A program made the translations under genes and the position numbers. This document shows, piece by piece, positions 6,142-61,021 of a stretch of DNA of 64,000 nt. Origin of the DNA: a virus; the IMG/VR virus record IMGVR_UViG_3300006310_000001; one strand, written 5' to 3'. The notes beneath the pieces are model-generated. The model searched no databases and had not been told where the DNA came from. It worked only from the letters and a program-made list of their open reading frames with translations. How positions within the stretch are numbered: position 1 is the first letter of the stretch; each line of letters begins with the position of its first letter.

Positions 6142-6733
6142 ATTGATACCCAAACCAACCAGTTATGATATATTTTTCGTGGGTCTTGGAAATTTGTCCG
6201 CTATGTGTATGTGTAAAGTCAGTCGGCCAAATCAAAGTCAAACCTTTTTCAGCAGGAGTTGTTGCATTTTGATATTTAAAATGTGTACCACCGTTAGGAA
6301 CATCATTTAAATAAGTCATCCAAACAAGACAACGGTTTTCGTGCCTGGAAGTTCTTTCACAATGCTTAGTAAAATAACCTCCACCTGGTGGATAGTATTG
6401 TAAATTTCCTCCTTCAACCATTCCATATCTTTCAAACTCTTTAACTTCAGGATATTTCTCTTCGTATAGACCAACACATTCTTTCAACGCATTTTTATAT
6501 TTCATAAACCTTGGTTCTTCCCAATTTGGATCTAATCCAATATCTATAGAATCTTTTACTTCTTTATTAATTTTTGAAGTGAAACCTACAACACCTGGTT
6601 TTTGTGCTTGTTTATTCTCTTTAAATAAATTTATAAGTCCATCACAAATACCAGAAGGAATATACCAACCTCCTATACAAGAAGTTGTTGGTATAATATA
6701 TTCTCTATGTTTTGGCATTACTTTGTATTGCAC
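6137..6733 (-). CDS. 2OG-Fe(II) oxygenase (prolyl-hydroxylase-like)
   Basis: LQYYPPGGGY..HCE, LVWMTYLNDV..GGT.F, LIWPTDFTHTH.G, KYIITGW. Probable GTG start at 6733 after GGAGG (ORF track starts 6745). Confidence 0.85.
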   Translation of the reverse strand: MQYKVMPKHREYIIPTTSCIGGWYIPSGICDGLINLFKENKQAQKPGVVGFTSKINKEVKDSIDIGLDPNWEEPRFMKYKNALKECVGLYEEKYPEVKEFERYGMVEGGNLQYYPPGGGYFTKHCERTSRHENRCLVWMTYLNDVPNGGTHFKYQNATTPAEKGLTLIWPTDFTHTHSGQISKTHEKYIITGWFGYQL

Positions 6734-7922
6734 TTTTACCTCCACATTTTTTCATAGCCGCTTTTAGTTTTACTACCATATCAAAGATTAATGCGTCTGT
6801 ATGAAATGGTGTAGGAGTAAATCTTAATCTTTCAGTACCTACAGGAACAGTCGGCCAATTAATAGGTTGTACATAGATACCTTCTTTATATAAAAGTTCA
6901 TCTGATATTGCTTTAGCTCTTTTAGGGTCTCCAATAATTACAGGAACAATATGACTATCATTTTTCATAACTTCTATACCTTGTCTAGCAAGTTCTAATT
7001 TAGTTTTATTTGCTCTTTCGTGTATTTGTTCTCTTAATTCAGGATGGTCTCTAACATATTTAATACTTGTTAAAGCACCAGCACAAATTACTGGACTTAA
7101 ACTAGTTGTAAATATAAAAGCACTTGCCAAACTTCTTATGGCGTCAATAAAATCTTTTTTTCCTGCAATGTATCCACCTTGTACTCCAAATGCTTTTGCT
7201 AATGTTCCATTAATAATATCTACTTCTATATTATCTCTTTCAGTAATACCACCACCTGTTGCACCATATAAACCAACAGCGTGTACTTCATCTAAAAATG
7301 TTATTGCATTATATTTTTTAGCTAGTTCTACTATTTCTTTTACTGGTCCAATATCTCCGTCCATAGAATATACACTTTCAAATACTACACATTTTGGACC
7401 TTCGTATGATTTTAAAATTCTTTCTAAATCTTCTACATCATTATGTTTAAATATTTCTTTCTTACATCTACTATGCCTAATGCCTTGTATAAGAGAAGAG
7501 TGATTTAATGAGTCTGATATATACAATAAGTCAGGTATAATTTTTCCTAAAGTTTCTAAAGTTGTTTGATTAGCATTATATGCTGAAGTAAATATTAATG
7601 CCTTTTCTTTTTTATGAAAATCTGCTAATTCGGTTTCTAAAGCATTATGGTAGTGAGTAGAACCAGATATGTTTCTTGTACCTCCAGCACCTGCCCCACT
7701 TGATTCTAATGCTGTTTTCATTGAGTCTATAACATAAGAGTGTTGTCCCATACCTAAATAATCGTTAGAACACCAATTGACTATTTTTTTAATTGAGTAT
7801 TTTGAATACCAAATAGCGTGAGGAAAGTTTCCTCTAGTCCTAACTATATCATTAAAGACTCGGTATCTTCCATCTTCTTTATATTCATTTATTATTTTTG
7901 TAAATTCTTCTAAATGTTTCAC
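6705..7922 (-). CDS. hemA: 5-aminolevulinate synthase (Shemin/C4 pathway)
   Basis: WCSNDYLGM, GAGAGGTRNISG, SDSLNHSSLIQGIR, FESVYSMDGD, DEVHAVGLYG, PLP lysine in GTLAKAFG, PTVPVGTERLRFTPTPFH. GTG start with GGAG SD. Confidence 0.95.
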   Translation of the reverse strand: MKHLEEFTKIINEYKEDGRYRVFNDIVRTRGNFPHAIWYSKYSIKKIVNWCSNDYLGMGQHSYVIDSMKTALESSGAGAGGTRNISGSTHYHNALETELADFHKKEKALIFTSAYNANQTTLETLGKIIPDLLYISDSLNHSSLIQGIRHSRCKKEIFKHNDVEDLERILKSYEGPKCVVFESVYSMDGDIGPVKEIVELAKKYNAITFLDEVHAVGLYGATGGGITERDNIEVDIINGTLAKAFGVQGGYIAGKKDFIDAIRSLASAFIFTTSLSPVICAGALTSIKYVRDHPELREQIHERANKTKLELARQGIEVMKNDSHIVPVIIGDPKRAKAISDELLYKEGIYVQPINWPTVPVGTERLRFTPTPFHTDALIFDMVVKLKAAMKKCGGKSAIQSNAKT

Positions 7923-8209
7923 TTAACTATAACTCCTTCTATATGGGTATAACCTAATTGTATAGCAGCCTGCACTCGTTGACTACCTTTCCACACACTA
8001 TATTCTTTTTCTATATATGGTATACCCATAGGACCATATCTAGGTACTTCGGATACAATGTGTTCTTTTACTTCTATTGGATAATTTAGTGATTCACCAT
8101 CTAATAATTCTTTTAATGGTGTCATTGACTTAATATAAATTAAGTCTTTTAGTACGATAGGAATTTTATTCGCTATCTTTTGATTTGCCGTCAATAGTTT
8201 CATTTTCAA
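7919..8209 (-). CDS. Small ParB/sulfiredoxin-like domain protein
   Basis: C-terminal VWKGSQRVQAAIQLGYTHIEGVIV resembles the ParB-N G..R..AA..LG motif. Confidence 0.5.
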   Translation of the reverse strand: MKMKLLTANQKIANKIPIVLKDLIYIKSMTPLKELLDGESLNYPIEVKEHIVSEVPRYGPMGIPYIEKEYSVWKGSQRVQAAIQLGYTHIEGVIVK

Positions 8210-8672
8210 TTCTCTTTTCTTTTTTAGTTTCCATACTTTGTTTATTCAACATCTTTTGTAATTCTGCTGTTGAACCTACAAATAAAGCATTTTTTATATT
8301 TGCGTTTGTTCTGCCAGGTAATTCTTTTAAGTCTTTAAATTTCTTTTGTAGGTCTTGTAATTTATCAACTGTAGTACCAACTTGTCCTATCAATTGCCCA
8401 ACAACTTCATATGCTCTAGGGTGTTGTCCTTCTTTTGCAATATCTAATATGCCTTGTATTGCTTCTTGTCCTTTTTCTATTATACTGTAATAACTTTCTC
8501 TACTGTAATCATAGTCAGTATTAATATCCTTTTCAACTTTTAAAGGAACTTCTCCATTCTTTCTAGGAACAGGTGGTTTAAAACCTTTTTGTGGTTCAAG
8601 GTTCTCTGGAACAACTTTATTTGTTCCTTCTAATCCCAATATTTCATTTACACTATCTTCCAATTTAGCCAT
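8166..8672 (-). CDS. gp16: Terminase small subunit
   Basis: DYDYSRESYYSIIEKG, HPRAYEVVGQLI, NALFVGSTAELQKML; downstream of gp15. Confidence 0.9.
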   Translation of the reverse strand: MAKLEDSVNEILGLEGTNKVVPENLEPQKGFKPPVPRKNGEVPLKVEKDINTDYDYSRESYYSIIEKGQEAIQGILDIAKEGQHPRAYEVVGQLIGQVGTTVDKLQDLQKKFKDLKELPGRTNANIKNALFVGSTAELQKMLNKQSMETKKEKRIENETIDGKSKDSE

Positions 8673-9475
8673 TATTCATCTTCTCCTGTTACTGGATTAT
8701 ATTTCTTTGTATCATCATAGAAACTAATCTTTGTTGTAAATCCAAAATCATCATCTGCATTAGCACTTTCAGGATTTGGTATTACTATAATTCTTTCTTC
8801 TCTTGATAAAGGAGCATCCGTAGATGTTCCTAAATCTGCTTGTGATTTTCTAATAACTTTACTTTGTGCCATAGGTCCATATAAGTAAGTTTTAGCAGTA
8901 AACGCTAAAGTATATATAACAGCTCTTCGCTTATTAAAATCACCATCATAAGTATCTTCATAACTTACATCATCTAAAACAATAGGTACGTCCCTTTTAA
9001 TATTTAATTCTGGTATTGCATTAATAGTTACTGTATAATCTGGTGCAAAGTATGGTAATATTTGTTCAATTATCTGTAGTCCATTTTCTGCTGTAGCAGT
9101 AAAAGAATAAAGATTAAATTGTATATCATAGGGTACAGGTGAATAATTAAAATTATGTATAGTAGAATCAGAAGTTTTAACTCTAACTGTTTTTTGAAGT
9201 TTGTTTAGTTTTCTAGTAGCGTCATACTTTAAACCTTTTAATTCAAATCCCATTCTAGGTAAAACAATTGCAAAAGTTCTACCTTTCTGCAAATTTGATT
9301 GTTGGTCTATTCTGGCTATAAACTTTTCTTTAGGAGCGTATGCTAAAGGCACACGTATTCTTTTAGTAACAGCACCTGTACTAGATTTTTGTTGAACGAT
9401 TATATTATTAAAAATTTGTCCAAATGCAATAGTTAGTCTTCTTAAACTTTGATTATAAAAATGTGTTCCGAACAT
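8672..9475 (-). CDS. gp15: Tail sheath stabiliser / terminator
   Basis: FGTHFYNQSLRRLTIAFGQIFN, VPLAYAPKEKF, LPRMGFE, EQILPYFAP. Confidence 0.93.
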   Translation of the reverse strand: MFGTHFYNQSLRRLTIAFGQIFNNIIVQQKSSTGAVTKRIRVPLAYAPKEKFIARIDQQSNLQKGRTFAIVLPRMGFELKGLKYDATRKLNKLQKTVRVKTSDSTIHNFNYSPVPYDIQFNLYSFTATAENGLQIIEQILPYFAPDYTVTINAIPELNIKRDVPIVLDDVSYEDTYDGDFNKRRAVIYTLAFTAKTYLYGPMAQSKVIRKSQADLGTSTDAPLSREERIIVIPNPESANADDDFGFTTKISFYDDTKKYNPVTGEDE

Positions 9476-9480
9476 ATAGT

Positions 9481-10314
9481 CTACTCGTCAATTTCCCCGA
9501 ATGGATTTCTTTCTGTAAAGTCAAGTATATCATCCGCTGTTGAAACAGTATCATATCCTGCTTCTTTATTCAAGTCTAAATTATCTGCATATGGAGATTG
9601 TGTCTGTATATTAGACTCTGTAAAATCTTCGTTCATTAAAAGTGCTGGTTGACCAGTTGAATAATCGTGATAACTTTCTAATTGTACTGAACCTGCACCT
9701 GTCATAACTTCTTGTCCATATTCTAAAGTAAACTTATATGCTAATTGGTCTAGTGTATGTGTATCTTCGTGTGAGTCAATAGTAGATAAACCAGTATCAA
9801 GTTTTTCACTTGAATATTCCCAACGAGTTACTTTTAATTTATAAACTGGCAGATTGCCTAATTGGAAAAATGGTTCTTGGTCTTCTACAAATAAAATTTC
9901 AAAAAAAGATTTCATCAAAGGCACATATATAATATCACCTTCGTTTGGTCTTCCTGTAACTGATAAAGAAGAACCAACCTGTGTTGCCTTATTACCAACT
10001 AAATTTGTCCAACTTCTTTTTGAAACCATTAATGATGTATCATCACGAATTTCTAATCCAAACTTACTTATGATTTCTTGTTCACCAGCAAATCCTGTAT
10101 TATTTTCAAAATACATTTCTATCAAATAAGAATCATCAAATCTACTAGATACATCTTCTCCTAGTATTAAATCTTTATTGACTAATGTTCGTGGTAAGTA
10201 GTAGACATCCTGACCGTAAATTTTAAGACCTTCAACTATTATATCTTCGTGTAGTCTTTGTTCGGCAGCATTACCTATGCCTTTTCCACCTTGAAAGTAA
10301 TGATTAACTGGCAT
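9481..10314 (-). CDS. gp14: Neck protein
   Basis: YGQDVYYLPRT, FGLEIRD, RPNEGDIIY.P, PFFQLG. Confidence 0.93.
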   Translation of the reverse strand: MPVNHYFQGGKGIGNAAEQRLHEDIIVEGLKIYGQDVYYLPRTLVNKDLILGEDVSSRFDDSYLIEMYFENNTGFAGEQEIISKFGLEIRDDTSLMVSKRSWTNLVGNKATQVGSSLSVTGRPNEGDIIYVPLMKSFFEILFVEDQEPFFQLGNLPVYKLKVTRWEYSSEKLDTGLSTIDSHEDTHTLDQLAYKFTLEYGQEVMTGAGSVQLESYHDYSTGQPALLMNEDFTESNIQTQSPYADNLDLNKEAGYDTVSTADDILDFTERNPFGEIDE

Positions 10315-10318
10315 AGCA

Positions 10319-11140
10319 TTATCCTATCATAAAAGGTTGCGGTTCTTCAAACTCGCTTCTTAATTTTATTTCCAATTTATCCAAATCTTCTAGTGCTTCA
10401 CTATAAATTTGTTTACCGTTTAATGTAACTCCACCAAGCATTGCAACACCATCAAACTTACTTAAATTGGCTCCCCATTGTTTTTTAAATAAAGCAGTTA
10501 CGTATCTTTTTAACCAAATATCATTAAAGACATCTGTATATGTGTTAGGGTCTAATTTTCTCCAGCATTCTATTACAAGAAATTCATCTACTTGTAAATC
10601 ATTTTTCCAATCCATATCAACATAAAGTCTATTATCTAATTGGTTAAATCTATAAGGTTTTTCTCCGACTAATATATGGTCTAAAAAATCTAAATGTCTT
10701 AATACAACATCATAGTTAATAACAGACGTTGAAGAAAAATCATATAGGTCATTTAATCTTAATTGATATCTAACATCAAATAAATTTAAATTACCTTTAT
10801 TTGAAAATGGAAAAATGTTAATTACAGATATAACAGATTCAGGACATACAATATACTGATTGCCTTCTTTCCATTCTGTATTTACTACAGAAGAATCACC
10901 ATATGTTTTAGATTCAGTTTCAGTACTATCTGCTAAAATTCTAGCTTTATCTGCCGCTGTATACTTGTATTTTAAATAGGTTCTTTTAACACCATCATAG
11001 TGGTATTGAGCAAAATATTGTAATGCTTCATCAAGTCTATCTTCCAGTTGGTCGTCATCAACGTTGATTTCAATTACTGGTTTACCTAATGCTCTTAAAG
11101 CGTATTGTTTTACTGTTTCTCTGGATGCTGGTTCTGCCAT
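10319..11140 (-). CDS. gp13: Neck protein
   Basis: LRALGKPVIEINVDDDQLEDR, KKQWGANLSKF.GV.M.GGVTLNG. Confidence 0.94.
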   Translation of the reverse strand: MAEPASRETVKQYALRALGKPVIEINVDDDQLEDRLDEALQYFAQYHYDGVKRTYLKYKYTAADKARILADSTETESKTYGDSSVVNTEWKEGNQYIVCPESVISVINIFPFSNKGNLNLFDVRYQLRLNDLYDFSSTSVINYDVVLRHLDFLDHILVGEKPYRFNQLDNRLYVDMDWKNDLQVDEFLVIECWRKLDPNTYTDVFNDIWLKRYVTALFKKQWGANLSKFDGVAMLGGVTLNGKQIYSEALEDLDKLEIKLRSEFEEPQPFMIG

Positions 11141-11158
11141 ACTGGTTCCTTTATTGTA

Positions 11159-11166
11159 TATTTATA
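11159..11166 (-). promoter_or_regulatory. T4-type late promoter upstream of gp13
   Basis: Exact TATAAATA in the gap between pcyX and gp13. Confidence 0.78.
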
Positions 11167-11173
11167 ATAACAA

Positions 11174-11851
11174 TTATATCTTCGGAAACAAATTATCAGT
11201 ACAGAATAGTTTTATATCATCTTCAGGCAGTCCAAGAGTTTTCATTACTCTAGGGGTGTGTGGATTTTGTTGTTGGTGTTCGCAATAGAAGTTTTGCGCT
11301 CTTATTACATCTTCTTCCTTTGAATCGCTATTATAATGACCAATTTTGTCAAGATAATTTTCTAAATTAGACGTAGCTAGAGTACATATTTGGTTTAATT
11401 CTTTTTCTTCTGTTACTCTACCAGCAGCAATCATACCAGGACTAAAGATAGCCTTTGCCCAATCAGGCAATTCTCTTTCTTTAGATGGTTTAAACCATTT
11501 ATTCTCTTCTATAAAATACTTTGTTAAGGGATGGTCTTTTAATAATAGTGGACTAAAATCGTGAAAGACACCTGTTATCTTTTTCTTACCTGCAATAACA
11601 TCAAATCCATAAATTGGACCACCATTTGTTAAATTTGGAAATAAACATATATGTGCCATCCAAAGACCTTTTGTTTCTCTGGCGTCCACTACGTCTACGT
11701 GAGCACGTCTTACACTCATATTAGACCAAGTACGGTTGGTCCAAGTATCATTATTAAATCTATCCATACCCTCTTCGTTGTATTCTTTACAACGTCTATC
11801 AAGTATAGCGATTATTTCTTTTTCTAATTTAATTAGTCGTTCCCAAATCAT
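11174..11851 (-). CDS. pcyX: Ferredoxin-dependent bilin reductase, PcyX-like
   Basis: RRAHVDVV, WMAHICLFP (His), PIYGFDVIAG (Asp), VFHDFSP, YCEHQQQNPHT; adjacent to heme oxygenase. The bilin reductase family is secure; PcyX versus PcyA subfamily is less so. Confidence 0.85.
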   Translation of the reverse strand: MIWERLIKLEKEIIAILDRRCKEYNEEGMDRFNNDTWTNRTWSNMSVRRAHVDVVDARETKGLWMAHICLFPNLTNGGPIYGFDVIAGKKKITGVFHDFSPLLLKDHPLTKYFIEENKWFKPSKERELPDWAKAIFSPGMIAAGRVTEEKELNQICTLATSNLENYLDKIGHYNSDSKEEDVIRAQNFYCEHQQQNPHTPRVMKTLGLPEDDIKLFCTDNLFPKI

Positions 11852-12449
11852 CTTTAACCTCGTTAGTTAAAATTAAAGGTTTTGAATAATCCATATCGTT
11901 CATTTCTTTGAACAATTGTGTAGCAGTTGCAAAACAAAATTTAACTTCATTTAGAATATTAAGTTTATAAACATTTAAATAACTGTTTATCATTTCTCTT
12001 ACTATTCGTTTATACTCTTTTATTTCTTTATGTTTAAACTTGTAATAACGATTAGGTCCTGGTGTTCTTTTCATTATCATTTGACCACCAGATACATCTC
12101 CTAAATGTCTAGTATAGATATGACCGTATAATTTTTCTGCGTCTTCTTTGATTGTTTCAATATGAGCAACATAATCTTTAGTACTTTGAGTTACTGTTGG
12201 AAGGTCTTCACTTGTCCATAATGCTTTAAAATCATAATGTAAATGTTCTGCTCTAGGTAAATTAGGAGTTGTACGAAATAGAGAATTTTCTATTCCATAT
12301 TTTTCTAATATAGCATAACATTGTAATTGATTGTAAAGATAGGTTGCATAAAGTCTAGGTTCAATAGAACCTGACATAAGAGTTTTGACAAACTCTTGTC
12401 TTTCAGCGTTTTGGTGTATATCTTTGGTTAATTCTTTGATGTCATACAT
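11829..12449 (-). CDS. hemO: Heme oxygenase
   Basis: Proximal His in TKDIHQNAE, distal helix HIYTRHLGDVSGGQ. Confidence 0.92.
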   Translation of the reverse strand: MYDIKELTKDIHQNAERQEFVKTLMSGSIEPRLYATYLYNQLQCYAILEKYGIENSLFRTTPNLPRAEHLHYDFKALWTSEDLPTVTQSTKDYVAHIETIKEDAEKLYGHIYTRHLGDVSGGQMIMKRTPGPNRYYKFKHKEIKEYKRIVREMINSYLNVYKLNILNEVKFCFATATQLFKEMNDMDYSKPLILTNEVKDDLGTTN

Positions 12450-12485
12450 AATATAATACTTATCATAATAAAATCACTACATAAA

Positions 12486-12806
12486 TTAAGCTAGACCAGC
12501 GTCTGAAAGTCTTTTTGCTTCTGCAATTTTAGCTTTATTTAAATCATCAGATTTTGTTTTCTCAGCAGCGTCTTCATCTGTTTGCGCTTGTTCTTTTGCT
12601 GTTAGAGCAGCCGCTTCATCACCGCCAGCTCCGCCAACTATTGTCAATTCTTTTGTATCTGGATTGATTGACATTCTCCACGCTTCAATGTTATCAGGAA
12701 CGTCATCAACTTTGATTGCTTGTCCTTTTGCTACTGCGTCATCTCCAGTTTCAGCATTTGGTGAAAAAGGTTCGCCTGCTAGTGTAAAGTAATATGTTCT
12801 TGCCAT
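12486..12806 (-). CDS. Hypothetical acidic protein, possible fibre chaperone
   Basis: 106 aa ORF with SD, directly after the aromatic-rich virion protein; no recognisable motif. Confidence 0.55.
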   Translation of the reverse strand: MARTYYFTLAGEPFSPNAETGDDAVAKGQAIKVDDVPDNIEAWRMSINPDTKELTIVGGAGGDEAAALTAKEQAQTDEDAAEKTKSDDLNKAKIAEAKRLSDAGLA

Positions 12807-12818
12807 CTCTATAATCTC

Positions 12819-14315
12819 CTATGTTCCGTATTTTCCACCGTAAGTATTTTCGGCATTTCCGAACTGACCCCACCAGTCAATTTGCATTAATAGTGGATAG
12901 TTAGTTGAGTAGAAACCTCCGTGTAGCCAAGTTCTAGCAGCGAATAAACCGTAATTTCCAGTTTTATTAGTTACTGTAGTTCCAACGTGTGAGTTGTTAT
13001 TTGGTATAACTTCATCTCCTGAAGAACCACCTTGATAAACAAGTGTACTTACTGTTTCATCTGAATCCGTAGGATCAAAAGACCAAGCATATGTTCTATG
13101 AGACTCTGAATCGCAGTTGTCTGACCAACCTCCGTGGAAACCTGTACGTCCCCAAGCAAAGTAAGGATTGGCTCTACTTGATTTAGTTTGGTTTATACAA
13201 ATAAATTTTCTAGGGTTTTCTATATTCATACAGAAACCATTGATACCTGGACCATAGTAATAATATGGTGAATAAATCATTCCCCAAGTTCCATCCCAAG
13301 TCGTCATAAATTTACTGTAGTATTGGTGTCCGTTATTAGCACCGTAAGATGTAGTTGTTGATCCTGTAAAATCTTGCCAAGTTGACCATTGTCTACTTGC
13401 ACCAGTTTGGTGAGCAGTTCCGCCTTTGACTGAACAATCAAATACACCGTATCTTTTACTATTACTTTGTTTTAATCCAAATCCAACATAGTCATTATTA
13501 CCAACAACAACGCACCAATCTTTAACATTTTGATTAGTCCAAGTGTCAGAAAAATATTCAGTTGAAGTTAAGTTATCAAAGTATTCTTTAATTCTGTCTA
13601 TTTTATTTAAACATTTAGCAGATTTGAAAATGTGAATCTTTTTAGAAGTATTTCCACCTTCGTCACCAGAGTGAACCATAACTAAAGTTTTTGTTTTCTC
13701 ATTGTATCCAGTACCAGTTGAATAAGTTTGGTCTGTATTCAACATATGAGAAGTATAATCATACGTGTCTATATTTGGAGCACCGTGCTGACCTGGATAT
13801 CTTTCTCTTAACGTAAATCGTCTATTAACAAACATACGTCTAGGTCTAATTCCTTCTGGAAGAACCATATTTAATTTTGTCCAACCATTTTGATATTCAA
13901 AAGAAGATGTGTATTGGTGATAAGAATGCCAAGATACGAATCCATCTCTTGAAGATGAATAATATTGTGCGTGTGGATATTGGTCACATTGGTACGTACT
14001 TTTGTTCCAATATGTCCAAGATGTATAATCTTGTGTTGTTAAATTTTCGTGAGATACGTGTTGACCGTGGTCATTATCTGTATAAGCGTGAGAAGCATCC
14101 GACAACATACCAAATCTATAGTTTGTTGTTGAGTTACATACAGCACCCCAAGGTGACCCTACGTTTTGAAAACCAGAATCAAAGACTCTGTAGTTTACGT
14201 TGTGATTACCGTCGGAGTTATCTCCCCACATACCGAATAGTGGAAGACCTTCTTTTCTGTGGTCTATTGCACCAGCTGAACTGCCGCCGCTTAAAAGTGT
14301 TGTTAATGAACTCAT
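12819..14315 (-). CDS. Putative virion receptor-binding / distal fibre protein
   Basis: MSSLTTLLSGG N-terminus typical of fibre-tip proteins; rich in W/Y/H/N/G/S/T; own late promoter. Confidence 0.5.
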   Translation of the reverse strand: MSSLTTLLSGGSSAGAIDHRKEGLPLFGMWGDNSDGNHNVNYRVFDSGFQNVGSPWGAVCNSTTNYRFGMLSDASHAYTDNDHGQHVSHENLTTQDYTSWTYWNKSTYQCDQYPHAQYYSSSRDGFVSWHSYHQYTSSFEYQNGWTKLNMVLPEGIRPRRMFVNRRFTLRERYPGQHGAPNIDTYDYTSHMLNTDQTYSTGTGYNEKTKTLVMVHSGDEGGNTSKKIHIFKSAKCLNKIDRIKEYFDNLTSTEYFSDTWTNQNVKDWCVVVGNNDYVGFGLKQSNSKRYGVFDCSVKGGTAHQTGASRQWSTWQDFTGSTTTSYGANNGHQYYSKFMTTWDGTWGMIYSPYYYYGPGINGFCMNIENPRKFICINQTKSSRANPYFAWGRTGFHGGWSDNCDSESHRTYAWSFDPTDSDETVSTLVYQGGSSGDEVIPNNNSHVGTTVTNKTGNYGLFAARTWLHGGFYSTNYPLLMQIDWWGQFGNAENTYGGKYGT

Positions 14316-14349
14316 TAAATGTTCTCCCCTAAAATTTTGTTTGTAATAC

Positions 14350-14357
14350 TATTTATA
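14350..14357 (-). promoter_or_regulatory. T4-type late promoter
   Basis: Exact TATAAATA upstream of the 498-aa ORF. Confidence 0.75.
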
Positions 14358-14373
14358 TAGTTTATATCTTTCA

Positions 14374-15000
14374 TTATGAAATTAACCACCCAATAAAAGA
14401 TGAAGTTACATCTGGTATTGTTTTATATGTTAGTCTGAAAGTAGCATACTTTTTGTCTACTATTAAATCTGTAGCACTTCCTGCTATGTTTTCACCATTT
14501 CTATCAACTGTAAGATTTTTTGTATCAAAAACTCCCATACCATCATTGATAATAACAAAGTCGTTATCTGCTGGTGAAGCAGGTAGTGTCATTGTAAATA
14601 CACCGTCTGTTGTATTGCATATATATGCACCGCCAGAAACAGCAGTAAAGTTAGCTGTTTTTGCTTCCCATAAAATTGAAGTTGAAGAACCCCAAACAGG
14701 ATCAGCACTAGCACCTTTAGTTACTAACATTTGATTTGGTGTGCCTGCCGCTAATCTTTGTACACCACTTGCATCCCTAAACAGCATATCGCCGTGGGTA
14801 GTAAGTTGTGTTACGTCATCACCTTTTTTGGCTATTTTAGACCAATAGGTTGCATTTGAAGTTGCGTTTCCAGTTGAAGCTAAAATGCAAATAAAAGTTT
14901 CGCCTCCATAGGTAGCAATGTCGTCCACTACATAAGCAGTAGCAGCATTATATGCCCCTTGAAATACTGGTTTAATTCTTCCTAAATTTATAGTTGCCAT
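14374..15000 (-). CDS. Short tail-fibre adaptor-like protein, paralogous to the ends of the 2429-aa protein
   Basis: N-terminal carbohydrate-binding-like repeat (YVVDDIATYGG), GDMLFR...RL..G linker, C-terminal TLPASP...LTVDRNG domain. Confidence 0.65.
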   Translation of the reverse strand: MATINLGRIKPVFQGAYNAATAYVVDDIATYGGETFICILASTGNATSNATYWSKIAKKGDDVTQLTTHGDMLFRDASGVQRLAAGTPNQMLVTKGASADPVWGSSTSILWEAKTANFTAVSGGAYICNTTDGVFTMTLPASPADNDFVIINDGMGVFDTKNLTVDRNGENIAGSATDLIVDKKYATFRLTYKTIPDVTSSFIGWLIS

Positions 15001-15015
15001 AATTCTCTTGATCCT

Positions 15016-15029
15016 TATTTATATTTATA
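15016..15029 (-). promoter_or_regulatory. Two overlapping T4-type late promoters
   Basis: TATAAATA at 15016-15023 and 15022-15029. Confidence 0.72.
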
Positions 15030-15069
15030 ATAGTTCTCTTCTACCATTTTAGTTAATTCAGATAATTTT

Positions 15070-16503
15070 TTATCCCATTTCTATGGTTAGGTTTCCGTTG
15101 ACTACCGTAAATGCCAACCCTCTTTTCCATAGTACACTATCCTCAAATATATCTTCTTGATGTTTAGTTTTATATCTAGTGTCAATATCATCAAGTCCAT
15201 TTGTGTAAGTTATCTGTAAATTGCCTTTCCATTCAGGTGTAAAAATTTCACCACCTTGACTTGGATGACCACCATTATAATAATACAACTTATCTACAGC
15301 ACTTCCTGGGTCTGTACTTGGTGTTTTACTTGGAACAATAATTGTTGTTGTAGCTCCAGGAGTTCCAGGAGTTCCAGATGAACTTACTCCTGTTACATAT
15401 TCAGTTCCACCTGCTTTATGTGTACCATCAACTGTTGTTGAGAATTTTAATGAGTGTCCGACTAAAGCAGTTTGAGAAACATCAAACACATACGTATTTC
15501 CTTCAAGAAATGTCATAGTGTTTTGACTTCTAGCTACGTGACTATATGGTAATTCATCTTCGCCACCATCAATCATTAACGTACCAGCAGTTCCTAAAAC
15601 ATACAGTTTTGTTCCATCAGCATTAAAAGTTAAACCACGTGGGTTCATTGTTGGTGCTGAAGGAGCATTAGTTAAACCAACTTCGTGTGTAAGTGCTTGT
15701 GTAGTTGAAACATCAAAACCTGTTACTAATGGATATTGTATAACATCATCACCATCTGTTCCTGCAATAAACATTCTTGTTCCATCTGTATTAAAACCTA
15801 AACCAGCTGGTGCTGTTTCTTGAGCGCCGATAGAAAAAGCATCTACGAAAGTTGCTGTAGAAACATCATACGCTGTACTTAAATCATATTCATTAACATC
15901 ATTACCAGTATCGCCAAGAACAATTAATAAAGTTCCATCAGCATTAAATTGCATATCACTAATAGCAGTATCTTGAGCAAGACAAGAAAATAAATCTGTA
16001 TAAGTTGCTGTAGTAATATCCCAAGCTGTAGTTAATGCATATTCATTAATATTACAAGCAGCTATACCTGCACTTGGTACTCCATCTCTACCCACAACAT
16101 ACATTTTAGTTCCTGTTGGATTAAATCTTACTGACCTTGGATTATCATCTTGAGCAGATACATCTTTATGTGTTCTCCAACTTGCTGTAGAAACATCAAA
16201 AGCTGTAGTCAATGTATATTCATCAACGTGTTTATCTGCATTACCCATAACAAACATTTTTGTTCCATCAGTACTAAACGTTGTGTTTAATGGATTTGAA
16301 TCATTAAACCCTATGTAATAAGATGTTGTATATGCTAATGTAGAAATATCCCAACCTGTTCCTAATGTATATTCATATACACTTTCATTACCAGTAATTA
16401 AGGTAAGGGTTCTATGTATCGTTTGAGAAGGAGCAACTCTATGGAATCCATAAAAGTCATCTTTCTCAGCGGATGTGACTGTAAAATCTGTTAATCTACT
16501 CAT
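15070..16503 (-). CDS. Virion-associated protein with beta-propeller-like repeats and a cupredoxin-like segment
   Basis: Five roughly 50-aa repeats EY.L.T.[WFY]D.ST...F..DGT...V.G, followed by FLEGNTYVFDVS...GHSLKFS. Confidence 0.6.
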   Translation of the reverse strand: MSRLTDFTVTSAEKDDFYGFHRVAPSQTIHRTLTLITGNESVYEYTLGTGWDISTLAYTTSYYIGFNDSNPLNTTFSTDGTKMFVMGNADKHVDEYTLTTAFDVSTASWRTHKDVSAQDDNPRSVRFNPTGTKMYVVGRDGVPSAGIAACNINEYALTTAWDITTATYTDLFSCLAQDTAISDMQFNADGTLLIVLGDTGNDVNEYDLSTAYDVSTATFVDAFSIGAQETAPAGLGFNTDGTRMFIAGTDGDDVIQYPLVTGFDVSTTQALTHEVGLTNAPSAPTMNPRGLTFNADGTKLYVLGTAGTLMIDGGEDELPYSHVARSQNTMTFLEGNTYVFDVSQTALVGHSLKFSTTVDGTHKAGGTEYVTGVSSSGTPGTPGATTTIIVPSKTPSTDPGSAVDKLYYYNGGHPSQGGEIFTPEWKGNLQITYTNGLDDIDTRYKTKHQEDIFEDSVLWKRGLAFTVVNGNLTIEMG

Positions 16504-16529
16504 TTATAATTCTCTTCTATATTTATTTA

Positions 16530-19500
16530 TTACGCTACTTCTACTAATTTCCAACCATTTGTTGATCCAGTATAAACTAAAGTGAATCCTGCGTGGTTGA
16601 TATCAGCAATCATATCTTGTTGTAAATTCATAATATCTTGACCATTTCTATCAACAGTTAAAGGTCTTAATTGAAATGATCCGTTTAAATCTAAAAATAC
16701 AAGTGAATCTCCTACTAGTGGACTAGCAGGCAATTTAACTGTCATTGCAAATAAACTTGTATCTATTAATAATCTTTGTCCACCTATTGCTACAGGTACA
16801 GTTGAACCATCTCCAACTAGAGTTGTCCAAGGAGTTCCTCCAGCTAGACCTGTCCAACTTGTTCCATTATAACCTTCCCAAGAAATTATTGAAGAATTGT
16901 ATCTTAAAGCACCTGCAAATAATTCACCGCCTACAGGTCTTTGTGCTGATGTTCCTGTTGGTGGAACCCACGCACCTGTACCTGCATTATCTCTTGTCAT
17001 ATAACCGACAACAGCATTTTCAGTAGGTATGGCTGTATTTGAATTACCGCCTAAAGTTGCGTCTGTACTAAATTCATTTATGGCAGCACCTAATTCTGCA
17101 CCAATAGAACCAAGTTTTAATTCACTTAATCCTGAAAGGTTAAATGCGTCTGCGTTTAATGTTGCACTACCAGTCGCTTGTTCAATTTTGAATAAATCAC
17201 CAACTCTAAAGTCACCAGTTTGGTCAGTTGATACCCAATATACACGACCACCGTTAACTTCAATTACTTCATCTGACTGGTCAGACGCTTGTAAAGGTGG
17301 TAATGGATAATTAGTTGAAGTAAAATCACCAGTACCTATATCCAAGAAATCGTGACCTGTTAAACGAATATTTGAATATTCTTTTGTTATGTCATTTACT
17401 GTATCCTCATTTTTGGCTTTACTCAAACCAATGCTACTAGTTAATCTTATTACTGCTGTTCCAGCACTCGTATCTTCTTCTGATACTAACCCTACTCTAT
17501 AAAATGTATTATCATTAGGGAATTTAACATTACTTGCTAATGCTATCATATCAACAGCATTTAAAGTTGTTGTACCTGATTTCATTGCAATCAAAGGACC
17601 CCTTTGTCCTTGTTGAGCAGCAGCTGTTCTGTTGAAAACAAAACCTGAAACGTTAACACTATTACTTGTAGCGATGGTAACTTTTTGTGAAGTACCACCA
17701 ATTACATAAGTATGAGCAATTGCTGATTTATCAACACCAAAGATATATGTATTTGCGTCAGGCACATCATAAACTTTAAATATTCCTGAACTTAATATAT
17801 CATCAGGATATGCTTTACTACCTGTTGAACAAGTGAATTGCATTCCTTGTACTTGTACTAAATCATTAACTATTAAACCGTGACCAGTTGATCCTACCGT
17901 AATAAGTCCTGTTACATTATCATAACTAGCACTACTAATTTCAGTTGCACTACCAACACTAGTTGGTGTTGCTGATTTAACTGTACCACCACTAACATAA
18001 GTATGTTCAATATCACTTGGTGCTAAAAAGAAATTTAATTTAGTAGCTGAACTAGATGATTTAACATTAAAGATTCCTGAAGTAGGTACTTGTGGATATA
18101 TTTTAACTCCATATACACAACTTGTTTTAATTCCGAATAAATTTACAGTATCACTCGCTGATAATCCGTGTGTTGGTGTAGTAATTATTGCTTTACCTGT
18201 CGCTATATCATAAACAAAATTTGAAATTGATAATCTAGTACCACCAGTTTTAAGAAGTGTACCACCACTAACATAAGATTGTGCTGTATTACTTGTTCCT
18301 AAATCAACTTGGAATGTTGTTCCTGTTAAATTTGGTGCCTCTACAGTAAATTGTGTAGTAGTAGATGATACAGGATATGTTTTATTTCCTATAACTGTTG
18401 AATCAGAAGAAAGACAACTCAATATTACATCTGATACTTCAATTAATTCTCCAGAACTTCTTCCGTGAGCAAGTGCTGTAGTTACATCTGCGCCTGTAGA
18501 ACCTGATTGACCACCAAAGTAACCATCCAAATCAACAGTAAATGTTGTTGAATCTTCTTTTGTAATTGTAACTGTTTCACCTTGTTTAAAGTTACCAGTA
18601 ATATTTTCTATATGTAAATATAGTAATGATACATTATATCTGAAAAGTGTAGCAGTTGCGCCAGATTCACTACCTACTATTGTAGCTGTACCTTGACCTT
18701 GTACTGCAATTGAATTTTCTATATCTGAAGCAGTTGCTGTTCCACCAAAAGTATCTTTGTCCCATTGCAACATCATACCACGAGATTTAAGATTGATAGG
18801 AACTTCTGCTTCGTTTGTACCTGAAGCAACAACACCTTGTTCTCCATATGCGTGTGAGCAGTTTAAGGCACGAATAAATCCACCTGATTCTGCATAAACG
18901 GCTTTGTCGCAATAGTATACGAATACTGACACCGCTTCAACACGTCCATATCCTAAAATGTGAATACCAATTCCATCTTCATTAATTTGTGTAAAGTCAT
19001 TTGCCAACATTGATTTATAACTTCGTGGGAAAGGACGTAAGTGGAGATTACCGTCAATTTGAACTCCACAAGCACCTGGATTTAAAGATGTACAGTTTTG
19101 TACATAAGGTGAAGTAAGATATATATTACCAATTGGGTCTAAAGATGTAAGAGCTTGTTCGTAAGGACCACTTGGATAAACTTTTTCTCCTAAATCACAT
19201 TCAAATTTCATTTTCCCTAAAGTAACCCAATCACCTGTAGTTAAACTGTGAGAATTGCTTGTAGTAACTGTAACCCTACCGTTGGCATTATTGTAAAGAA
19301 TATTAGATAATCCTAATTTAACTGATTCATTACCAACTGCTATAACGTGACCACCACTCTTATACGTATGTACAAAAGTTGATGTTCCCATTTGAACTGT
19401 AAATTCTGTTCCTGATGTTACTGTTACTTGATATAATCCTCCTGACTGTTTCTTTTCATTAAGATCCAAGAAAGTCATATTTCTTATATTATTTTTTTCG

Positions 19501-28121: not shown

Positions 28122-28451
28122 ATGAGTTTCTGGACACTAATTACATACACCAGACCAAATACTGATACGGAGTGGTATCAAGTTAATGATGAAGCAAAAG
28201 CATATATAGAAAGCTTAAAAGCAGATGATGGAGCTAATCCATCTATTATATCTTACGAAAAGCTTGAGTCAAATGATGGTTTAAAGCAATATTATAAATT
28301 AAATTACAAAGATGGAGCAACTGCCGATTTATTACAAGAAAGTGATATAGGAGTTGCTAATGAAACTGCTAGAGAAAACTATTGCTCAAGTAATAATATA
28401 GTATTTACTGAGGAACTAGTTGGTGAAACTGAACCTTCAGTTACGCTTTAA
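28122..28451 (+). CDS. Small acidic hypothetical protein (109 aa)
   Basis: Start moved to ATG 28122 after AAGGAG; MSFWTLITYTRPNTDTEWY...; own late promoter. Confidence 0.7.
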   Translation: MSFWTLITYTRPNTDTEWYQVNDEAKAYIESLKADDGANPSIISYEKLESNDGLKQYYKLNYKDGATADLLQESDIGVANETARENYCSSNNIVFTEELVGETEPSVTL

Positions 28452-31602: not shown

Positions 31603-31604
31603 AT

Positions 31605-32920: not shown

Positions 32921-32944
32921 AATCTTTAATAAATAGTCTAGTAT

Positions 32945-32952
32945 TATTTATA
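32945..32952 (-). promoter_or_regulatory. T4-type late promoter driving the leftward arm of the modification island
   Basis: Exact TATAAATA on minus strand. A near-match AATAAATA on plus at 32928-32935 may drive the rightward arm. Confidence 0.65.
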
Positions 32953-56204: not shown

Positions 56205-56212
56205 AACTGTAA

Positions 56213-56220: not shown

Positions 56221-56224
56221 CAGT

Positions 56225-56524: not shown

Positions 56525-56528
56525 TGCT

Positions 56529-56986: not shown

Positions 56987-56989
56987 AAT

Positions 56990-57196: not shown

Positions 57197-57335
57197 TCTG
57201 TTTATTCCTTTTCACACTACATTTTTTATCATCACATCTACAATATTTACAGATTTCCAATTTTCTTGCTTCCATCATTTCATACTTTGGCTTTCCGCAA
57301 TGGGATTCTCTCCCACAATTGTTGCAATAAGTCAT
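57174..57335 (-). CDS. Unannotated 53-aa Cys-rich (zinc-ribbon-like) protein
   Basis: MTYCNNCGRESHCGKPK...CKYCRCDDKKC...; 8 nt downstream of a late promoter; below the ORF-track cutoff. Confidence 0.65.
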   Translation of the reverse strand: MTYCNNCGRESHCGKPKYEMMEARKLEICKYCRCDDKKCSVKRNKQNVKRKKV

Positions 57336-57342
57336 AATATAG

Positions 57343-57350
57343 TATTTATA
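57343..57350 (-). promoter_or_regulatory. T4-type late promoter heading the Cys-rich / rplL / PAAR unit
   Basis: Exact TATAAATA. Confidence 0.75.
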
Positions 57351-57506
57351 CTAAAAATCACACAGGTAAACTGCTTCCCGATTCGGAAATTTGTCTATGT
57401 CATAGGAAAATCTGCAATTATGAACGTTTCCACAAGAAACTAGAACAAAAAGCGAACACACAACTAAAAAAACCTTGATTTTTCTCATTTTTTTTGAATT
57501 TTTCCC

Positions 57507-57535
57507 TTGACTTTCCTAAATTTTTAGTGTATATT
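57507..57535 (+). promoter_or_regulatory. Sigma70-type (early) promoter
   Basis: TTGACT-17 nt-TATATT, A/T-rich UP region, AAGGAG SD before ATG 57564. Confidence 0.75.
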
Positions 57536-57563
57536 TAACGTATAAGTTGAAAAGGAGAACATT

Positions 57564-57770
57564 ATGAAAAAACTACTTGAATATTTAACTATCATTTTAT
57601 CAATAGTAGGTACTTTCTGTTTAATCGGTGCTGTCGGCGCAATTGACGGCGGTTATAACGGAGTTCCAATGAACGATAATTGGTTTTTATGTGGTACTTT
57701 GTCATTGTTAGGAATTGCTATGTTTATTTTAGCATTATACTCGCAAACGTTGTATTCTGAACAAGACTAA
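57564..57770 (+). CDS. Small two-TM membrane protein
   Basis: Two hydrophobic helices; strong promoter and SD. Confidence 0.7.
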   Translation: MKKLLEYLTIILSIVGTFCLIGAVGAIDGGYNGVPMNDNWFLCGTLSLLGIAMFILALYSQTLYSEQD

Positions 57771-58639
57771 CCACTAGATTTTAATAAATAGCCTATCTCT
57801 ATTCCTAGCTCACTTGCTTTATCAATAGTTTTAGATGATTTTGAATAGAATCTATCTTTACCATCTGGTGAAAATAGTTCTGCTTCAAGATTAATCGTAT
57901 TACCATCAATATTTGCAAATACACCTACCGCTGTATCACAATCTCCTTCTATAATTTTTAAAACGTTTCTTTCTGCCTTAACACAATTGTGTGTTTCTGT
58001 ATGATTAACACTTTTTAATAACTCAATTATCTCTTCATCATTATCTCTACATTGTAAGGCAATAACACCTTGTCCTGCACACGGTATCATTTCACTAGTA
58101 GAAAAAGTTTGAGAAATCTTGTTCTCTAAACCTAATGATTGAATTCCTGCATAAGACAAAATAATAGCGTCAAATAAACCATCATTTAGTTTTTTAATTC
58201 GTGTATCAACGTTTCCTCTTATCAACTTACATATAAGGTCTTTTCTTATATTCTTTAATTGGAATTCTCTTCTAAATGAAGAAGTACCAATAATTGAATT
58301 TGGAGCTAAATCTTTTAAGTGTTTATTATCTCTACTAATTAAAATTTCTCTTGGATCGTTTCTTTCTAAAAAACAGTTTGTTAATAAACCTTCTGTTTCT
58401 TCCGTTGGCATATCTTTTAATGCGTGAACGGCTATATCTATTTTTTTATCTAATAATTCAACTTCTATCATCTTGGAAAAGAGACCTTTACCTCCAGCTT
58501 CAGAAAGTCTTACATCTTTAAGTTGGTCACCTTTGGTTTCAATTTCTTTGATAAGTATTTCTTTGTTTAATACTGCTTTAGCTTTTTCAGCATAGATACG
58601 TGCTAATTTACTTCCTCTTGATCCTATTGTGAGCGACAT
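57767..58639 (-). CDS. hemC: Porphobilinogen deaminase (HMB synthase)
   Basis: IGSRGSKLA, TKGD, GGKGLF, DIAVHALKDMP, GTSS.RR, RGNVDTR, GQG, AER, cofactor Cys in EGDCDTAVG. Start moved to ATG 58639. Confidence 0.95.
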   Translation of the reverse strand: MSLTIGSRGSKLARIYAEKAKAVLNKEILIKEIETKGDQLKDVRLSEAGGKGLFSKMIEVELLDKKIDIAVHALKDMPTEETEGLLTNCFLERNDPREILISRDNKHLKDLAPNSIIGTSSFRREFQLKNIRKDLICKLIRGNVDTRIKKLNDGLFDAIILSYAGIQSLGLENKISQTFSTSEMIPCAGQGVIALQCRDNDEEIIELLKSVNHTETHNCVKAERNVLKIIEGDCDTAVGVFANIDGNTINLEAELFSPDGKDRFYSKSSKTIDKASELGIEIGYLLKSSG

Positions 58640-59424
58640 AATCGTCTTGCACCATAAGTTATCATATAACAAGCACCTGCTCTTTTGAATATGTGATATG
58701 TTTCTTCTAAACTACCAGGCGCACCAATACCTAACCATTCTCCAGATGTTTGATATACACCTACAGGTTTCTTTGTAATATTTCTTATTGGTTCAATTAA
58801 GTCTAAACTTGTCATACCAGGTTTTACCATTAATTCATCTGCGCCATCATCTGAATATTTTATAGACCTTATAATTGCCTTATGTCTATCGCTAACATCT
58901 AATTGATAGGGTCTATGAATACCTTTTGGTATCTTCATTACATCACGCCAACCTCTATAAAATGTTGAACGAAATTTTGTACTATAACTCATTACAGGTA
59001 TCTGACCATTATTAATTGATTTAATATTCTTAACTGTATTGTCTTGACAATCACTTGGCGCTATTGTAGCACCTGACGCTGTGTAAATCTCTAAAGCTGA
59101 TTGTAGTAATAGGTCATCTGTTTTTTCTTGGTCTCCTGTTACACAACAATGTCCATCGTGGGTATAAGAACATAAACATACATCAACATTTAATTTTATA
59201 GGTATATGTGATAGACGTTGTAAAGAGTGAGCAGTTTCACACACTTTGTCAAAGTTAAATAACTTAAATTCAGGTATGTAAAATAAAAGAAATTCTTTTA
59301 CTCCTAAATCAATATCTTTCTTAACACGTTCTTTGACATCTTTTGCACTAAAGATTTTATTATCTTCTCCTAGTCCAGTTTCTCTTGTAGAGTTACTAGC
59401 AAAGATTGGTTGTATTAATCTCAT
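58624..59424 (-). CDS. hemB: Porphobilinogen synthase (ALA dehydratase), compact Zn-type
   Basis: DVCLCSYTHDGHC (Zn triad), APSD, MSYSTKF and MVKP (Schiff-base lysines), YQLD, YQTSGE; only 266 aa. Confidence 0.9.
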   Translation of the reverse strand: MRLIQPIFASNSTRETGLGEDNKIFSAKDVKERVKKDIDLGVKEFLLFYIPEFKLFNFDKVCETAHSLQRLSHIPIKLNVDVCLCSYTHDGHCCVTGDQEKTDDLLLQSALEIYTASGATIAPSDCQDNTVKNIKSINNGQIPVMSYSTKFRSTFYRGWRDVMKIPKGIHRPYQLDVSDRHKAIIRSIKYSDDGADELMVKPGMTSLDLIEPIRNITKKPVGVYQTSGEWLGIGAPGSLEETYHIFKRAGACYMITYGARRLCRSQ

Positions 59425-60254
59425 TTTGCTGACTTTGCTAACATTTGATGGTTTCTTTTATACATCAATGCTGTTCGTTGTTGTTCTTCGTGAGGTGCTA
59501 CTAATTTAAATTTAGATATACCCATTTTCTCATACATAGGTAAATCAAAATAAAATTCACTCCAAGTTATATCATCATTATAAAAAGTACGTTCCATACC
59601 TAAATGAATTAAACTACATATCATTCCTTTTCTTTCTTCTCTATTAATTTTAGAAGTTGTACCATAACAAACTTTACTAGGACAATTATAAGAACACTCT
59701 ATGTTCATAAACAATCTTAATAAATCTTTTCTCTTAATACTTTCTATAAACTTTAAATCATCATTACTATGAATAGGTAAAACAATTGTATCGTATAAAT
59801 TCTTTGCAACAACTTTTTCATAATGTTCATTGTCTGTAATATCTTGTATGCAACTTGCTTCTATTTTATAATCAGGAAAATCATTTCTAATATATTCAGC
59901 CAACTTATCAGTTGCTGTAATAACTGCATTTCCTTTTCTATGATATTCTTTTAAAAACGGTTTACTTTCTTTATACTTATCATCTGTTATAAATTTATTC
60001 TGTAAAGTAAGTTTAAGACCAATACCCTTATCATAAATCCATTCAATATCTTTCTCAAACATTTCTGGAGTTTCTGCAGGACGTCCACCGTATAAAGGAC
60101 AATGTTCTTCCGTTTGTCCAAAAACAGAATCTATATCATCATAGCCAAATGAAAAATTAGAATGTTCTTCTGCGTGGCGTATATGACTATCTAAAAATGC
60201 TTTGATATGTACGTCCCATTGTTTTCTTGCTGAACAAGATATTACTCTTCCCAT
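59421..60254 (-). CDS. U32-family-like Fe-S protein of unknown function
   Basis: YGGR, GIGLKLTLQN, AVITATDKLAEYIRNDFPDYKIEAS, DTIVLP, LFMNIECSYNCPSKVC, later MIC, GISKFKL; follows the U32 TIM-barrel motif order. Confidence 0.6.
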   Translation of the reverse strand: MGRVISCSARKQWDVHIKAFLDSHIRHAEEHSNFSFGYDDIDSVFGQTEEHCPLYGGRPAETPEMFEKDIEWIYDKGIGLKLTLQNKFITDDKYKESKPFLKEYHRKGNAVITATDKLAEYIRNDFPDYKIEASCIQDITDNEHYEKVVAKNLYDTIVLPIHSNDDLKFIESIKRKDLLRLFMNIECSYNCPSKVCYGTTSKINREERKGMICSLIHLGMERTFYNDDITWSEFYFDLPMYEKMGISKFKLVAPHEEQQRTALMYKRNHQMLAKSAK

Positions 60255-61021
60255 ATCGCACCTGGTGGCATAGACATTAATATTGCTTCAGGATTTCCTC
60301 CACTTCTCAATCCAAACTTTGTTCCTCTATCATACATTAAATTAAATTCAACGTATCGTCCACGTTTTAATAGTTGTGTATACTTATCTTGCTTCGTATA
60401 TTTTAAATTCATCTTTGGTGTTATAATCTCTTTAAGTAATTGACAAAAGGTTCTACCAACATCTTTAACAAATTCAAAATGTTTCTTACCATATTTGTAA
60501 TCAAAGAAGATACCACCTACACCTCTTGTTTCTTCTCTATGGGGTAAATAAAAATACTCATCACACCATTTCTTATATGTTTTGTAATAAAGTTTATTAT
60601 GTCTATCACATAATTGTTTTAATCTGTAATGCCATAAATTTCTTTCTACATCATCTTTCAAACACGGTGTCATATCTGTACCACCACCAAACCAACTTTT
60701 TTCTGTTTCAATATATCTTGTATTAAAATGTATTGCAGGTACTTTAGGATTCTTTGGATGTAATACTACTGATACTCCTGTTGACCAGAAGTTTCTACTA
60801 TGTTTTGTACCAGGGATTTCTTTTGCGAAGTCTTTTGGAAACTTACCTACAACATTACTAAAGGTGACACCTCCCTTTTCAATCACGTCACCTTTAATTG
60901 TTTTAAAGTTACCAAATTTCCATTTGTTATCTTTAAATTTTGCTTTAGTTTCTAACTCTTCAATAGTCTGACAAATTGATTTTTGCAATTCAATAAACCA
61001 TTGCAACGCTTCTTGTTTCAT
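60242..61021 (-). CDS. hemF: Oxygen-dependent coproporphyrinogen III oxidase
   Basis: EKGGV.FS.V, GVSVVLHPKNP.VP..HFN.RY, WFGGG.D.TP, WCDEYFYLPHR.E.RGVGGIFFD, RGRYVEFNL.YDRGT.FGL. Confidence 0.96.
   Translation of the reverse strand: MKQEALQWFIELQKSICQTIEELETKAKFKDNKWKFGNFKTIKGDVIEKGGVTFSNVVGKFPKDFAKEIPGTKHSRNFWSTGVSVVLHPKNPKVPAIHFNTRYIETEKSWFGGGTDMTPCLKDDVERNLWHYRLKQLCDRHNKLYYKTYKKWCDEYFYLPHREETRGVGGIFFDYKYGKKHFEFVKDVGRTFCQLLKEIITPKMNLKYTKQDKYTQLLKRGRYVEFNLMYDRGTKFGLRSGGNPEAILMSMPPGAIWEE

Follow-up and report, generated by a model that had tools for sequence, protein, structure and literature searches.

Why would a virus of a non-photosynthetic bacterium carry six genes for making and opening heme? 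The question is raised by the viral record IMGVR_UViG_3300006310_000001, of which we analyzed a stretch of 64,000 nucleotides, here called the window (64 kb of a genome of ~140 kb). The window encodes 5-aminolevulinate synthase (ALAS), HemB, HemC, HemF, the heme oxygenase HemO, and the bilin reductase PcyX, and an initial annotation had read this set as a mostly virus-run pipeline from glycine towards bilin. This turned out to be too strong: sister phages swap hemF, hemE, and hemC, and searches for viral hemD and hemH turned up no close counterpart. We favor instead, with a probability of roughly 75%, the reading that a Mosig-like Pelagibacter myophage carries mix-and-match auxiliary heme genes that keep tetrapyrrole flux running. 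All six open reading frames (ORFs) lie on the minus strand, where the initial annotation had placed them:

6705..7922, minus strand: ALAS, between terS and terL (TIGR01821, over cut-off)
11174..11851, minus strand: PcyX-type ferredoxin-dependent bilin reductase, matching the solved PcyX 5OWG
11829..12449, minus strand: heme oxygenase HemO, overlapping pcyX, in the pre-gp13 slot as in Mosig (Mosig_00053/54)
57767..58639, minus strand: HemC, hydroxymethylbilane synthase, 290 aa, likely start at 58639
58624..59424, minus strand: HemB, short zinc type, 266 aa (PF00490)
60242..61021, minus strand: HemF, oxygen-dependent coproporphyrinogen III oxidase (NF003727)

The claim of six enzymes in one T4-like virus held up: all are present, keep their catalytic residues, and recur in independent viral contigs. 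ALAS scored 566.6 bits against TIGR01821 (cut-off, 338.6), higher than against BioF/Kbl, and alignment with solved ALAS showed that the motifs of the pyridoxal phosphate-binding His214 and Lys243 are retained. Its activity is expected by analogy with a related viral ALAS that has been shown to be active (PMC11480375). HemO matched PF01126 with 75 bits, over the cut-off, and retains the proximal His12 and the distal-helix motif. The best solved match of the reductase encoded by the adjoining pcyX was PcyX EBK42635 (PDB 5OWG; E 8e-117, compared to only ~1e-10 for PcyA). The two share their site residues, and D55, M67, H69, C71, D100, N198, and H200 (PcyX numbering) are all retained. A published phage reductase, CB_2, made phycocyanobilin, which was explained by its missing Asp55 (PMC11480375). 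Because the window PcyX, unlike that enzyme, keeps Asp55, phycoerythrobilin is the likely product of HemO and PcyX, as had been proposed. HemC (TIGR00212, 316 bits; cut-off, 164) retains the catalytic Asp and the cofactor Cys, and the active-site segments of HemF (NF003727, 332 bits; cut-off, 297) align unbroken. The hem and bilin genes are under purifying selection, with median ratios of nonsynonymous to synonymous substitution (pairwise, simple counting) of 0.21 for ALAS, 0.14 for pcyX, 0.26 for HemC, and 0.33 for HemB, compared to 0.29 for the structural gp15; HemF was represented by one pair only.

The genes were also confirmed to be viral, as they lie amid T4-type structural genes in a synteny shared across samples. 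A contig from another sample (G001) matched window positions 1 to 20000 at 97%, and a second one (G002), again from another sample, carries hemF-hemB-hemC and matched positions 15366 to 20000 at 98%. Together, these two contigs bridge the window. Contigs of several samples repeat the order hemF-(U32)-hemB-hemC between gp5 and gp25, and a more distant phage (G009, 60.6 kb) harbors hemB plus hemO-pcyX-ALAS on a single contig. The GC content at third codon positions is alike in hem and bilin genes (0.12 to 0.23) and in structural genes (0.10 to 0.19). HemC found its matches in a viral clade (89 to 100% identity), followed by Pelagibacter (76 to 79%). This last similarity could point to host DNA misassembled into the phage contig, but we consider this extremely improbable, given the same synteny in many samples, the separate viral HemC clade, a gene order unlike that of the host, and a HemB with only 30% identity to the host's.

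The window sheath protein is 81% identical to that of Pelagibacter phage Mosig EXVC030M (MT647606), a phage of HTCC1062, and 55% identical to that of HTVC008M. The gene order is that of Mosig, with both T4-type structural genes and SAR11-derived genes. By these comparisons, the virus is a relative of Mosig among the Mosig-like pelagimyophages. In a phylogenetic tree, the viral HemC clade (support 99/100) was nested within the Pelagibacteraceae, indicating that viral HemC was captured from Pelagibacter; HemF is 56 to 59% identical to Pelagibacter HemF. The likeness to Mosig and the nesting of HemC bear out the proposed non-photosynthetic alphaproteobacterial host and point to Pelagibacter/SAR11, the subclade being suggested by the gene donors. 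Comparison with host homologs thus gave a split answer, HemC being host derived and HemB, at ~30% identity, not.

We then compared the slot between gp5 and gp25 among related phages. It contains hemF-U32-hemB-hemC in the window, L001, and L003 to L005; hemF-hemB-hemC in L006 and L007; and DUF454-hemE-hemB-hemC in L008, L009, and L116 to L119, where DUF454 and hemE stand in place of hemF (L008:3312-4711). The U32-like gene is therefore optional, being absent from L006 to L009. The sister hemE, encoding uroporphyrinogen decarboxylase, is 81 to 83% identical to that of three Pelagibacter genomes; it had been overlooked by the initial annotation, as had the non-host origin of HemB. In G009, the slot holds hemB without its module partners, and G007 (82% complete) carries ALAS-hemO-pcyX and no hemB. 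Because relatives carry such changing subsets of genes, the module fits a mix-and-match set, and the relief of single bottlenecks is a better fit than one pipeline. A single, coherent pathway run by the virus, leading from glycine to phycoerythrobilin with the bilin as its goal, would account for six genes in one genome and for the joining of ALAS to hemO-pcyX in many relatives. Nevertheless, it appears unlikely: the module differs between phages, ALAS-hemO-pcyX occurs without hemB in G007, Mosig has only hemO-pcyX, no close viral hemD or hemH turned up, and no bilin-binding protein was recognized among the scanned window ORFs. Neither were HemD, HemE, protoporphyrinogen oxidase, or ferrochelatase recognized in the window.

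Some further arrangements were observed. Other viruses carry OMP decarboxylase-hemF-hemB-hemO (L050:8564-11372) or hemF-hemB, and in L288 to L292 we saw hemE-hemF-hemC with a short (~250 aa) HemC, as well as hemF-hemE. The ORFs following hemC in L288 to L290 were considered as HemD and rejected, and 136-aa and 330-aa ORFs of L008, considered as HemJ and HemH, proved to be DUF454 and HemE. Mosig_00059 (L013:14208-14978, 256 aa), near hemO, is annotated as ferrochelatase and gave no best match to SAR11 HemH. In a related phage clade (L045/L046, ~7848-8660), a second, divergent heme-oxygenase-like ORF of ~270 aa directly precedes hemO-pcyX-ALAS; it is 22 to 25% identical to window HemO and has no Pfam match. 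Searches of INPHARED with HemB, HemC, HemF, and ALAS returned distant matches only (<42%), mostly records resembling host DNA, and no isolated phage with close relatives of these proteins.

What would ALAS add to such a host? Only two routes to 5-aminolevulinic acid (ALA) are known (PMC11480375). Five Pelagibacteraceae genomes, including two complete chromosomes, showed neither ALAS nor glutamyl-tRNA reductase (GluTR), although all five have hemB, hemC, and hemE, and four have hemF. In the genomes nearest to viral hemC and hemE, ORFs resembling hemD, hemH, and hemJ adjoin hemC and hemE where inspected. We extended the survey to 151 Pelagibacteraceae genomes, requested at a completeness of at least 85%, with controls behaving as expected. 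HemB was found in 144 of them and ALAS in 26 (24 over the cut-off plus 2 fragments), while the GluTR N-terminal domain was found in none; the unpublished genomes G059 and G137 contribute one each to these tallies, and no conclusion depends on either. The SAR11 ALAS proteins that we looked up came from Fonsibacter, HIMB114-like, and other Pelagibacteraceae clusters, and window ALAS is 50 to 56% identical to the ALAS of this minority. ALAS and GluTR are thus absent from most SAR11 genomes searched, with the rest of the heme pathway kept. This differs from the statement that Pelagibacteraceae use the Shemin pathway exclusively (PMC11480375), and the literature we searched, whose coverage left out most subscription papers, held no report of such a gap. 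Because the genomes closest to viral hemC and hemE lack ALAS, the viral enzyme probably supplies a step that the likely host does not encode, a gap that the initial annotation had overlooked.

Viral HemB matched PF00490 with 156 bits and scored under the NCBIfam equivalog cut-off (145 versus 297). Its structural model (predicted local distance difference test score [pLDDT], 92.5) contains the complete ALAD TIM barrel, with a template modeling (TM) score of 0.91 to human ALAD. With the zinc-dependent porphobilinogen synthases of human and Escherichia coli it shares this barrel (TM 0.9), the Cys triad, and two lysines; indeed, the Zn ligands C83/C85/C93 and the Schiff-base residues K150/K201 are invariant in 38 aligned relatives. 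It differs from these enzymes in being ~60 residues shorter, in having no arm, and in its altered lid. The allosteric-Mg glutamate is missing, and an Arg stands at this position, as in mammalian porphobilinogen synthase. The SAR11 host, in contrast, encodes a HemB of 329 aa that belongs to the zinc-independent type and has the allosteric Glu. It is ~30% identical to the viral protein, arguing that viral HemB is not derived from the host. The short HemB proteins (263 to 286 aa) form one clade (Shimodaira-Hasegawa-like approximate likelihood ratio support of 100 in a quick tree of selected sequences), which is virus associated, spans 40 to 98% identity, and occurs in several phage groups. In large marine phages (L052 to L057), a short hemB stands immediately after the major capsid gene gp23.

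Taken together, we picture the following course. Three variable slots hold the auxiliary heme genes, which would probably act late in infection. Promoter-like motifs were matched at these positions:

62866..62873, minus strand: late-promoter motif of the T4 type, preceding the hemF module (pattern match only)
11159: late-promoter-like motif, before gp13 ... ALAS (pattern match only)
14350: late-promoter-like motif, before ... hemO-pcyX (pattern match only)

Each of the three hem loci sits downstream of such a motif, as judged by the motif alone. The window contains 21 T4-type late motifs versus 15 expected, many of them directly before structural genes; sigma-70 promoter matches were as frequent as expected by chance, and positions 57300 to 63400 revealed no terminator. 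Viral ALAS would provide ALA, and the short zinc-type HemB, free of the arm and of the Mg site that regulate cellular enzymes, would condense it; we infer that this HemB is deregulated. The host-derived HemC, together with HemF, would relieve later steps, and the host would supply HemD, HemE, protoporphyrinogen oxidase, and ferrochelatase. HemO would then open heme, freeing iron, and PcyX would reduce biliverdin to phycoerythrobilin. This bilin step most likely serves as product clearance or as a sink rather than for light harvesting.

Several points weigh against an auxiliary role in tetrapyrrole flux. The N-terminal arm, which viral HemB lacks, is needed in cellular HemB for the active octamer, and in the lid of the viral protein only the first Arg (R160) is invariant, the second position carrying a His that is directly followed by a near-invariant Arg. 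Together with the score below the equivalog cut-off, this could mean that the short HemB is inactive or a decoy acting on the host enzyme. We judge this quite improbable, since a clade that spans 40 to 98% identity and several phage groups keeps both lysines and the Cys triad without exception, and since the barrel is intact in the model. In addition, the activity of the phage hem enzymes is a prediction from sequence. Scans of viral sequences with SAR11 hemD and hemH, which detect close relatives only, yielded nothing, and further hem genes may lie elsewhere because the window covers only 64 kb of ~140 kb. Finally, the host could also be an ALAS-bearing SAR11 (IIIa or Fonsibacter).

If most SAR11 encode no known ALA route, which protein makes ALA in these bacteria? 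In Fonsibacter-type genomes, ALAS is divergent from hemB and stands before rpiB-glyA. In other SAR11, the same slot between hemB and rpiB-glyA usually holds a 196- to 213-aa PF05118 oxygenase (L120 to L124, L162, and L171) of the Asp/Asn-beta-hydroxylase-like 2-oxoglutarate-Fe(II) type. We found it in 121 of the 151 genomes, none of which belongs to the 26 ALAS-bearing ones; ten negatives were read from omission in the match list. The four genomes with neither gene also lack hemB. Twelve copies outside the slot were read, 11 of which directly follow katG and one of which precedes cydA, and in IIIa-type genomes ALAS itself adjoins katG and hemC. Phages carry the gene as well. Mosig_00118, a close homolog (E 8e-71), occupies the gp5-gp25 slot of Mosig in place of the hem module, and many pelagimyophages are alike in this. 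In eight sister-phage contigs, the oxygenase comes right after hemB, in the position taken by hemC in the window; L251 reads hemF-U32-DUF454-hemB-small ORF-oxygenase, and in L043 ALAS occupies the slot after gp5. The phages with ALAS (window, G007, and G009) have no close copy of the oxygenase, and Mosig and G564 have the oxygenase and no ALAS. Outside SAR11, the alphaproteobacterium G402 has hemB and a 57% identical oxygenase homolog beside an aldolase, with neither ALAS over the cut-off nor GluTR. The closest solved relative of the oxygenase is Cpz10 (PDB 7V4F; E 5e-15 over the cupin half), and the iron triad is kept. Cpz10 is an amino-acid beta-hydroxylase acting on a nucleoside antibiotic precursor (PMC9814697).

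These patterns lead to an extension of our reading, which we hold tentatively and at slightly less than even odds: most SAR11 would make ALA via the oxygenase, which would replace ALAS, and phages would carry either one. ALAS forms 2-amino-3-oxoadipate as an intermediate, which loses CO2. A plausible, if speculative, chemistry would reach the same compound by oxidizing C3 either of 2-aminoadipate or of the aldol product of glycine and succinic semialdehyde, and end in ALA and CO2. In favor of this are the mutual exclusion with ALAS in 151 genomes and the absence of hemB where both are absent, the position in the ALAS slot beside hemB and in katG and cydA neighborhoods, the placement after phage hemB, the either-or pattern of the phages, the second lineage G402, and the kinship with Cpz10. 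However, the SAR11 pattern may reflect one or two evolutionary events, so that the counts are not independent, and seven of eight other alphaproteobacteria with a homolog (39 to 57%) also have ALAS. Moreover, at 72 of 80 phage loci hemB does not adjoin the oxygenase, and the exclusivity in phages is based on five, mostly partial, genomes. SAR11 also yielded no clear enzyme leading from lysine to aminoadipate, a search for saccharopine dehydrogenase giving only weak Rossmann-fold matches.

Alternatively, the oxygenase might make glycine, by beta-hydroxylation followed by retro-aldol cleavage through GlyA/LtaE, and be tied to glyA for this reason. SAR11 would then import ALA or use another enzyme for its synthesis, and viral ALAS would free the infected cell from that supply. 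SAR11 require glycine, the oxygenase precedes rpiB-glyA in SAR11, and four of eight non-SAR11 homologs adjoin a threonine-aldolase-family gene, as seen in L256, L257, L261, and L262. Yet glycine supply leaves the exclusion of ALAS, the katG and cydA operons, and the adjacency to phage hemB unexplained, and HTCC1062 can be grown in a defined medium to which neither ALA nor heme is added. We therefore regard it as a possibility that deserves attention but is doubtful. The full proposition is that most SAR11 have a third ALA route via the oxygenase, that their myophages carry either this oxygenase or a true ALAS, plus an armless zinc HemB of their own, and that the phage studied here would thereby replace an ALA source of its host that requires oxygen by the Shemin route, which does not. 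It is again tentative, its odds lying below even.

The hem genes have further neighbors in the window, among them a U32-like ORF between hemF and hemB that was missing from the otherwise correct gene list of the initial annotation:

59421..60254, minus strand: U32-like TIM-barrel ORF, 277 aa, overlapping hemF and hemB
61025..61762, minus strand: 2-oxoglutarate-Fe(II) oxygenase, first gene of the module (PF13759, phrog_81), a common phage type
56624..56986, minus strand: ribosomal protein L7/L12 (TIGR00855), known in PMP-A pelagimyophages (PMC7029224)

The U32-like ORF has 376 relatives at 50% clustering. Its C187/191/196/213 are invariant, so that it is a probable Fe-S protein; the spacing of these four Cys differs from that in UbiU. 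Its model (pLDDT 94) found its best fold match in the U32 protein Mk0906 (E 4e-7, TM 0.52). A PF01136 annotation is carried by 16% of one cluster, and the window ORF itself has no Pfam match. The oxygenase at 61025..61762 was considered as a counterpart of the SAR11 ALAS-slot oxygenase and ruled out, as it did not match the profile of the latter. Apart from these genes, the window covers that half of a T4-type myophage which carries its structural genes (portal, sheath, terminases, neck, tail fibers, and baseplate), including a tail-fiber-like ORF of 2429 aa with internal repeats (16530-23819). A GC-poor island (28437-37628, 27 to 29% GC), partly on the opposite strand, encodes three radical-SAM proteins, cupins, an epimerase, and a GT8 glycosyltransferase, and fits the host-recognition cluster of pelagimyophages.

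How much of this was known before? A cassette of ALAS, hemO, and pcyA/X has been published in aquatic phages, and the viral ALAS, HemO, and bilin reductase were active (PMC11480375). The same three enzymes occur here, but split and in a Mosig-like myophage; moreover, that study names no hemB, hemC, or hemF, all of which the window has. Mosig carries hemO-pcyX before gp13, as does the window, but neither hemB, hemC, hemF, nor ALAS, which its genome map does not show in the terS-terL slot. In the deep-ecotype pelagimyophage PMP-MAVG-4, coproporphyrinogen oxidase and porphobilinogen deaminase were listed as unique genes in a single untested sentence that names neither hemB nor ALAS (PMC7029224). 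Viral heme-synthesis genes have been reported to increase as oxygen declines (PMC13184970). The suggested novelty of the combination therefore stands in part: hemF and hemC had been named together, and in the literature searched we found no report of viral hemB, of viral hemE, or of the joint set. The six-gene set is a variation on known phage tetrapyrrole genes, the parts of which are partly known.

Its value lies in what it brings to light: a minimal HemB associated with viruses and, in most SAR11, an apparent gap where heme synthesis begins, together with a candidate to fill it. Whether catalysis requires the arm and the octamer is a question for which the short viral HemB offers a natural test. 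Viral ALAS would have to be read as a step absent from the host rather than as a second copy, and the gene swaps of the phages single out one small soluble protein as a candidate for the ALA step of SAR11.

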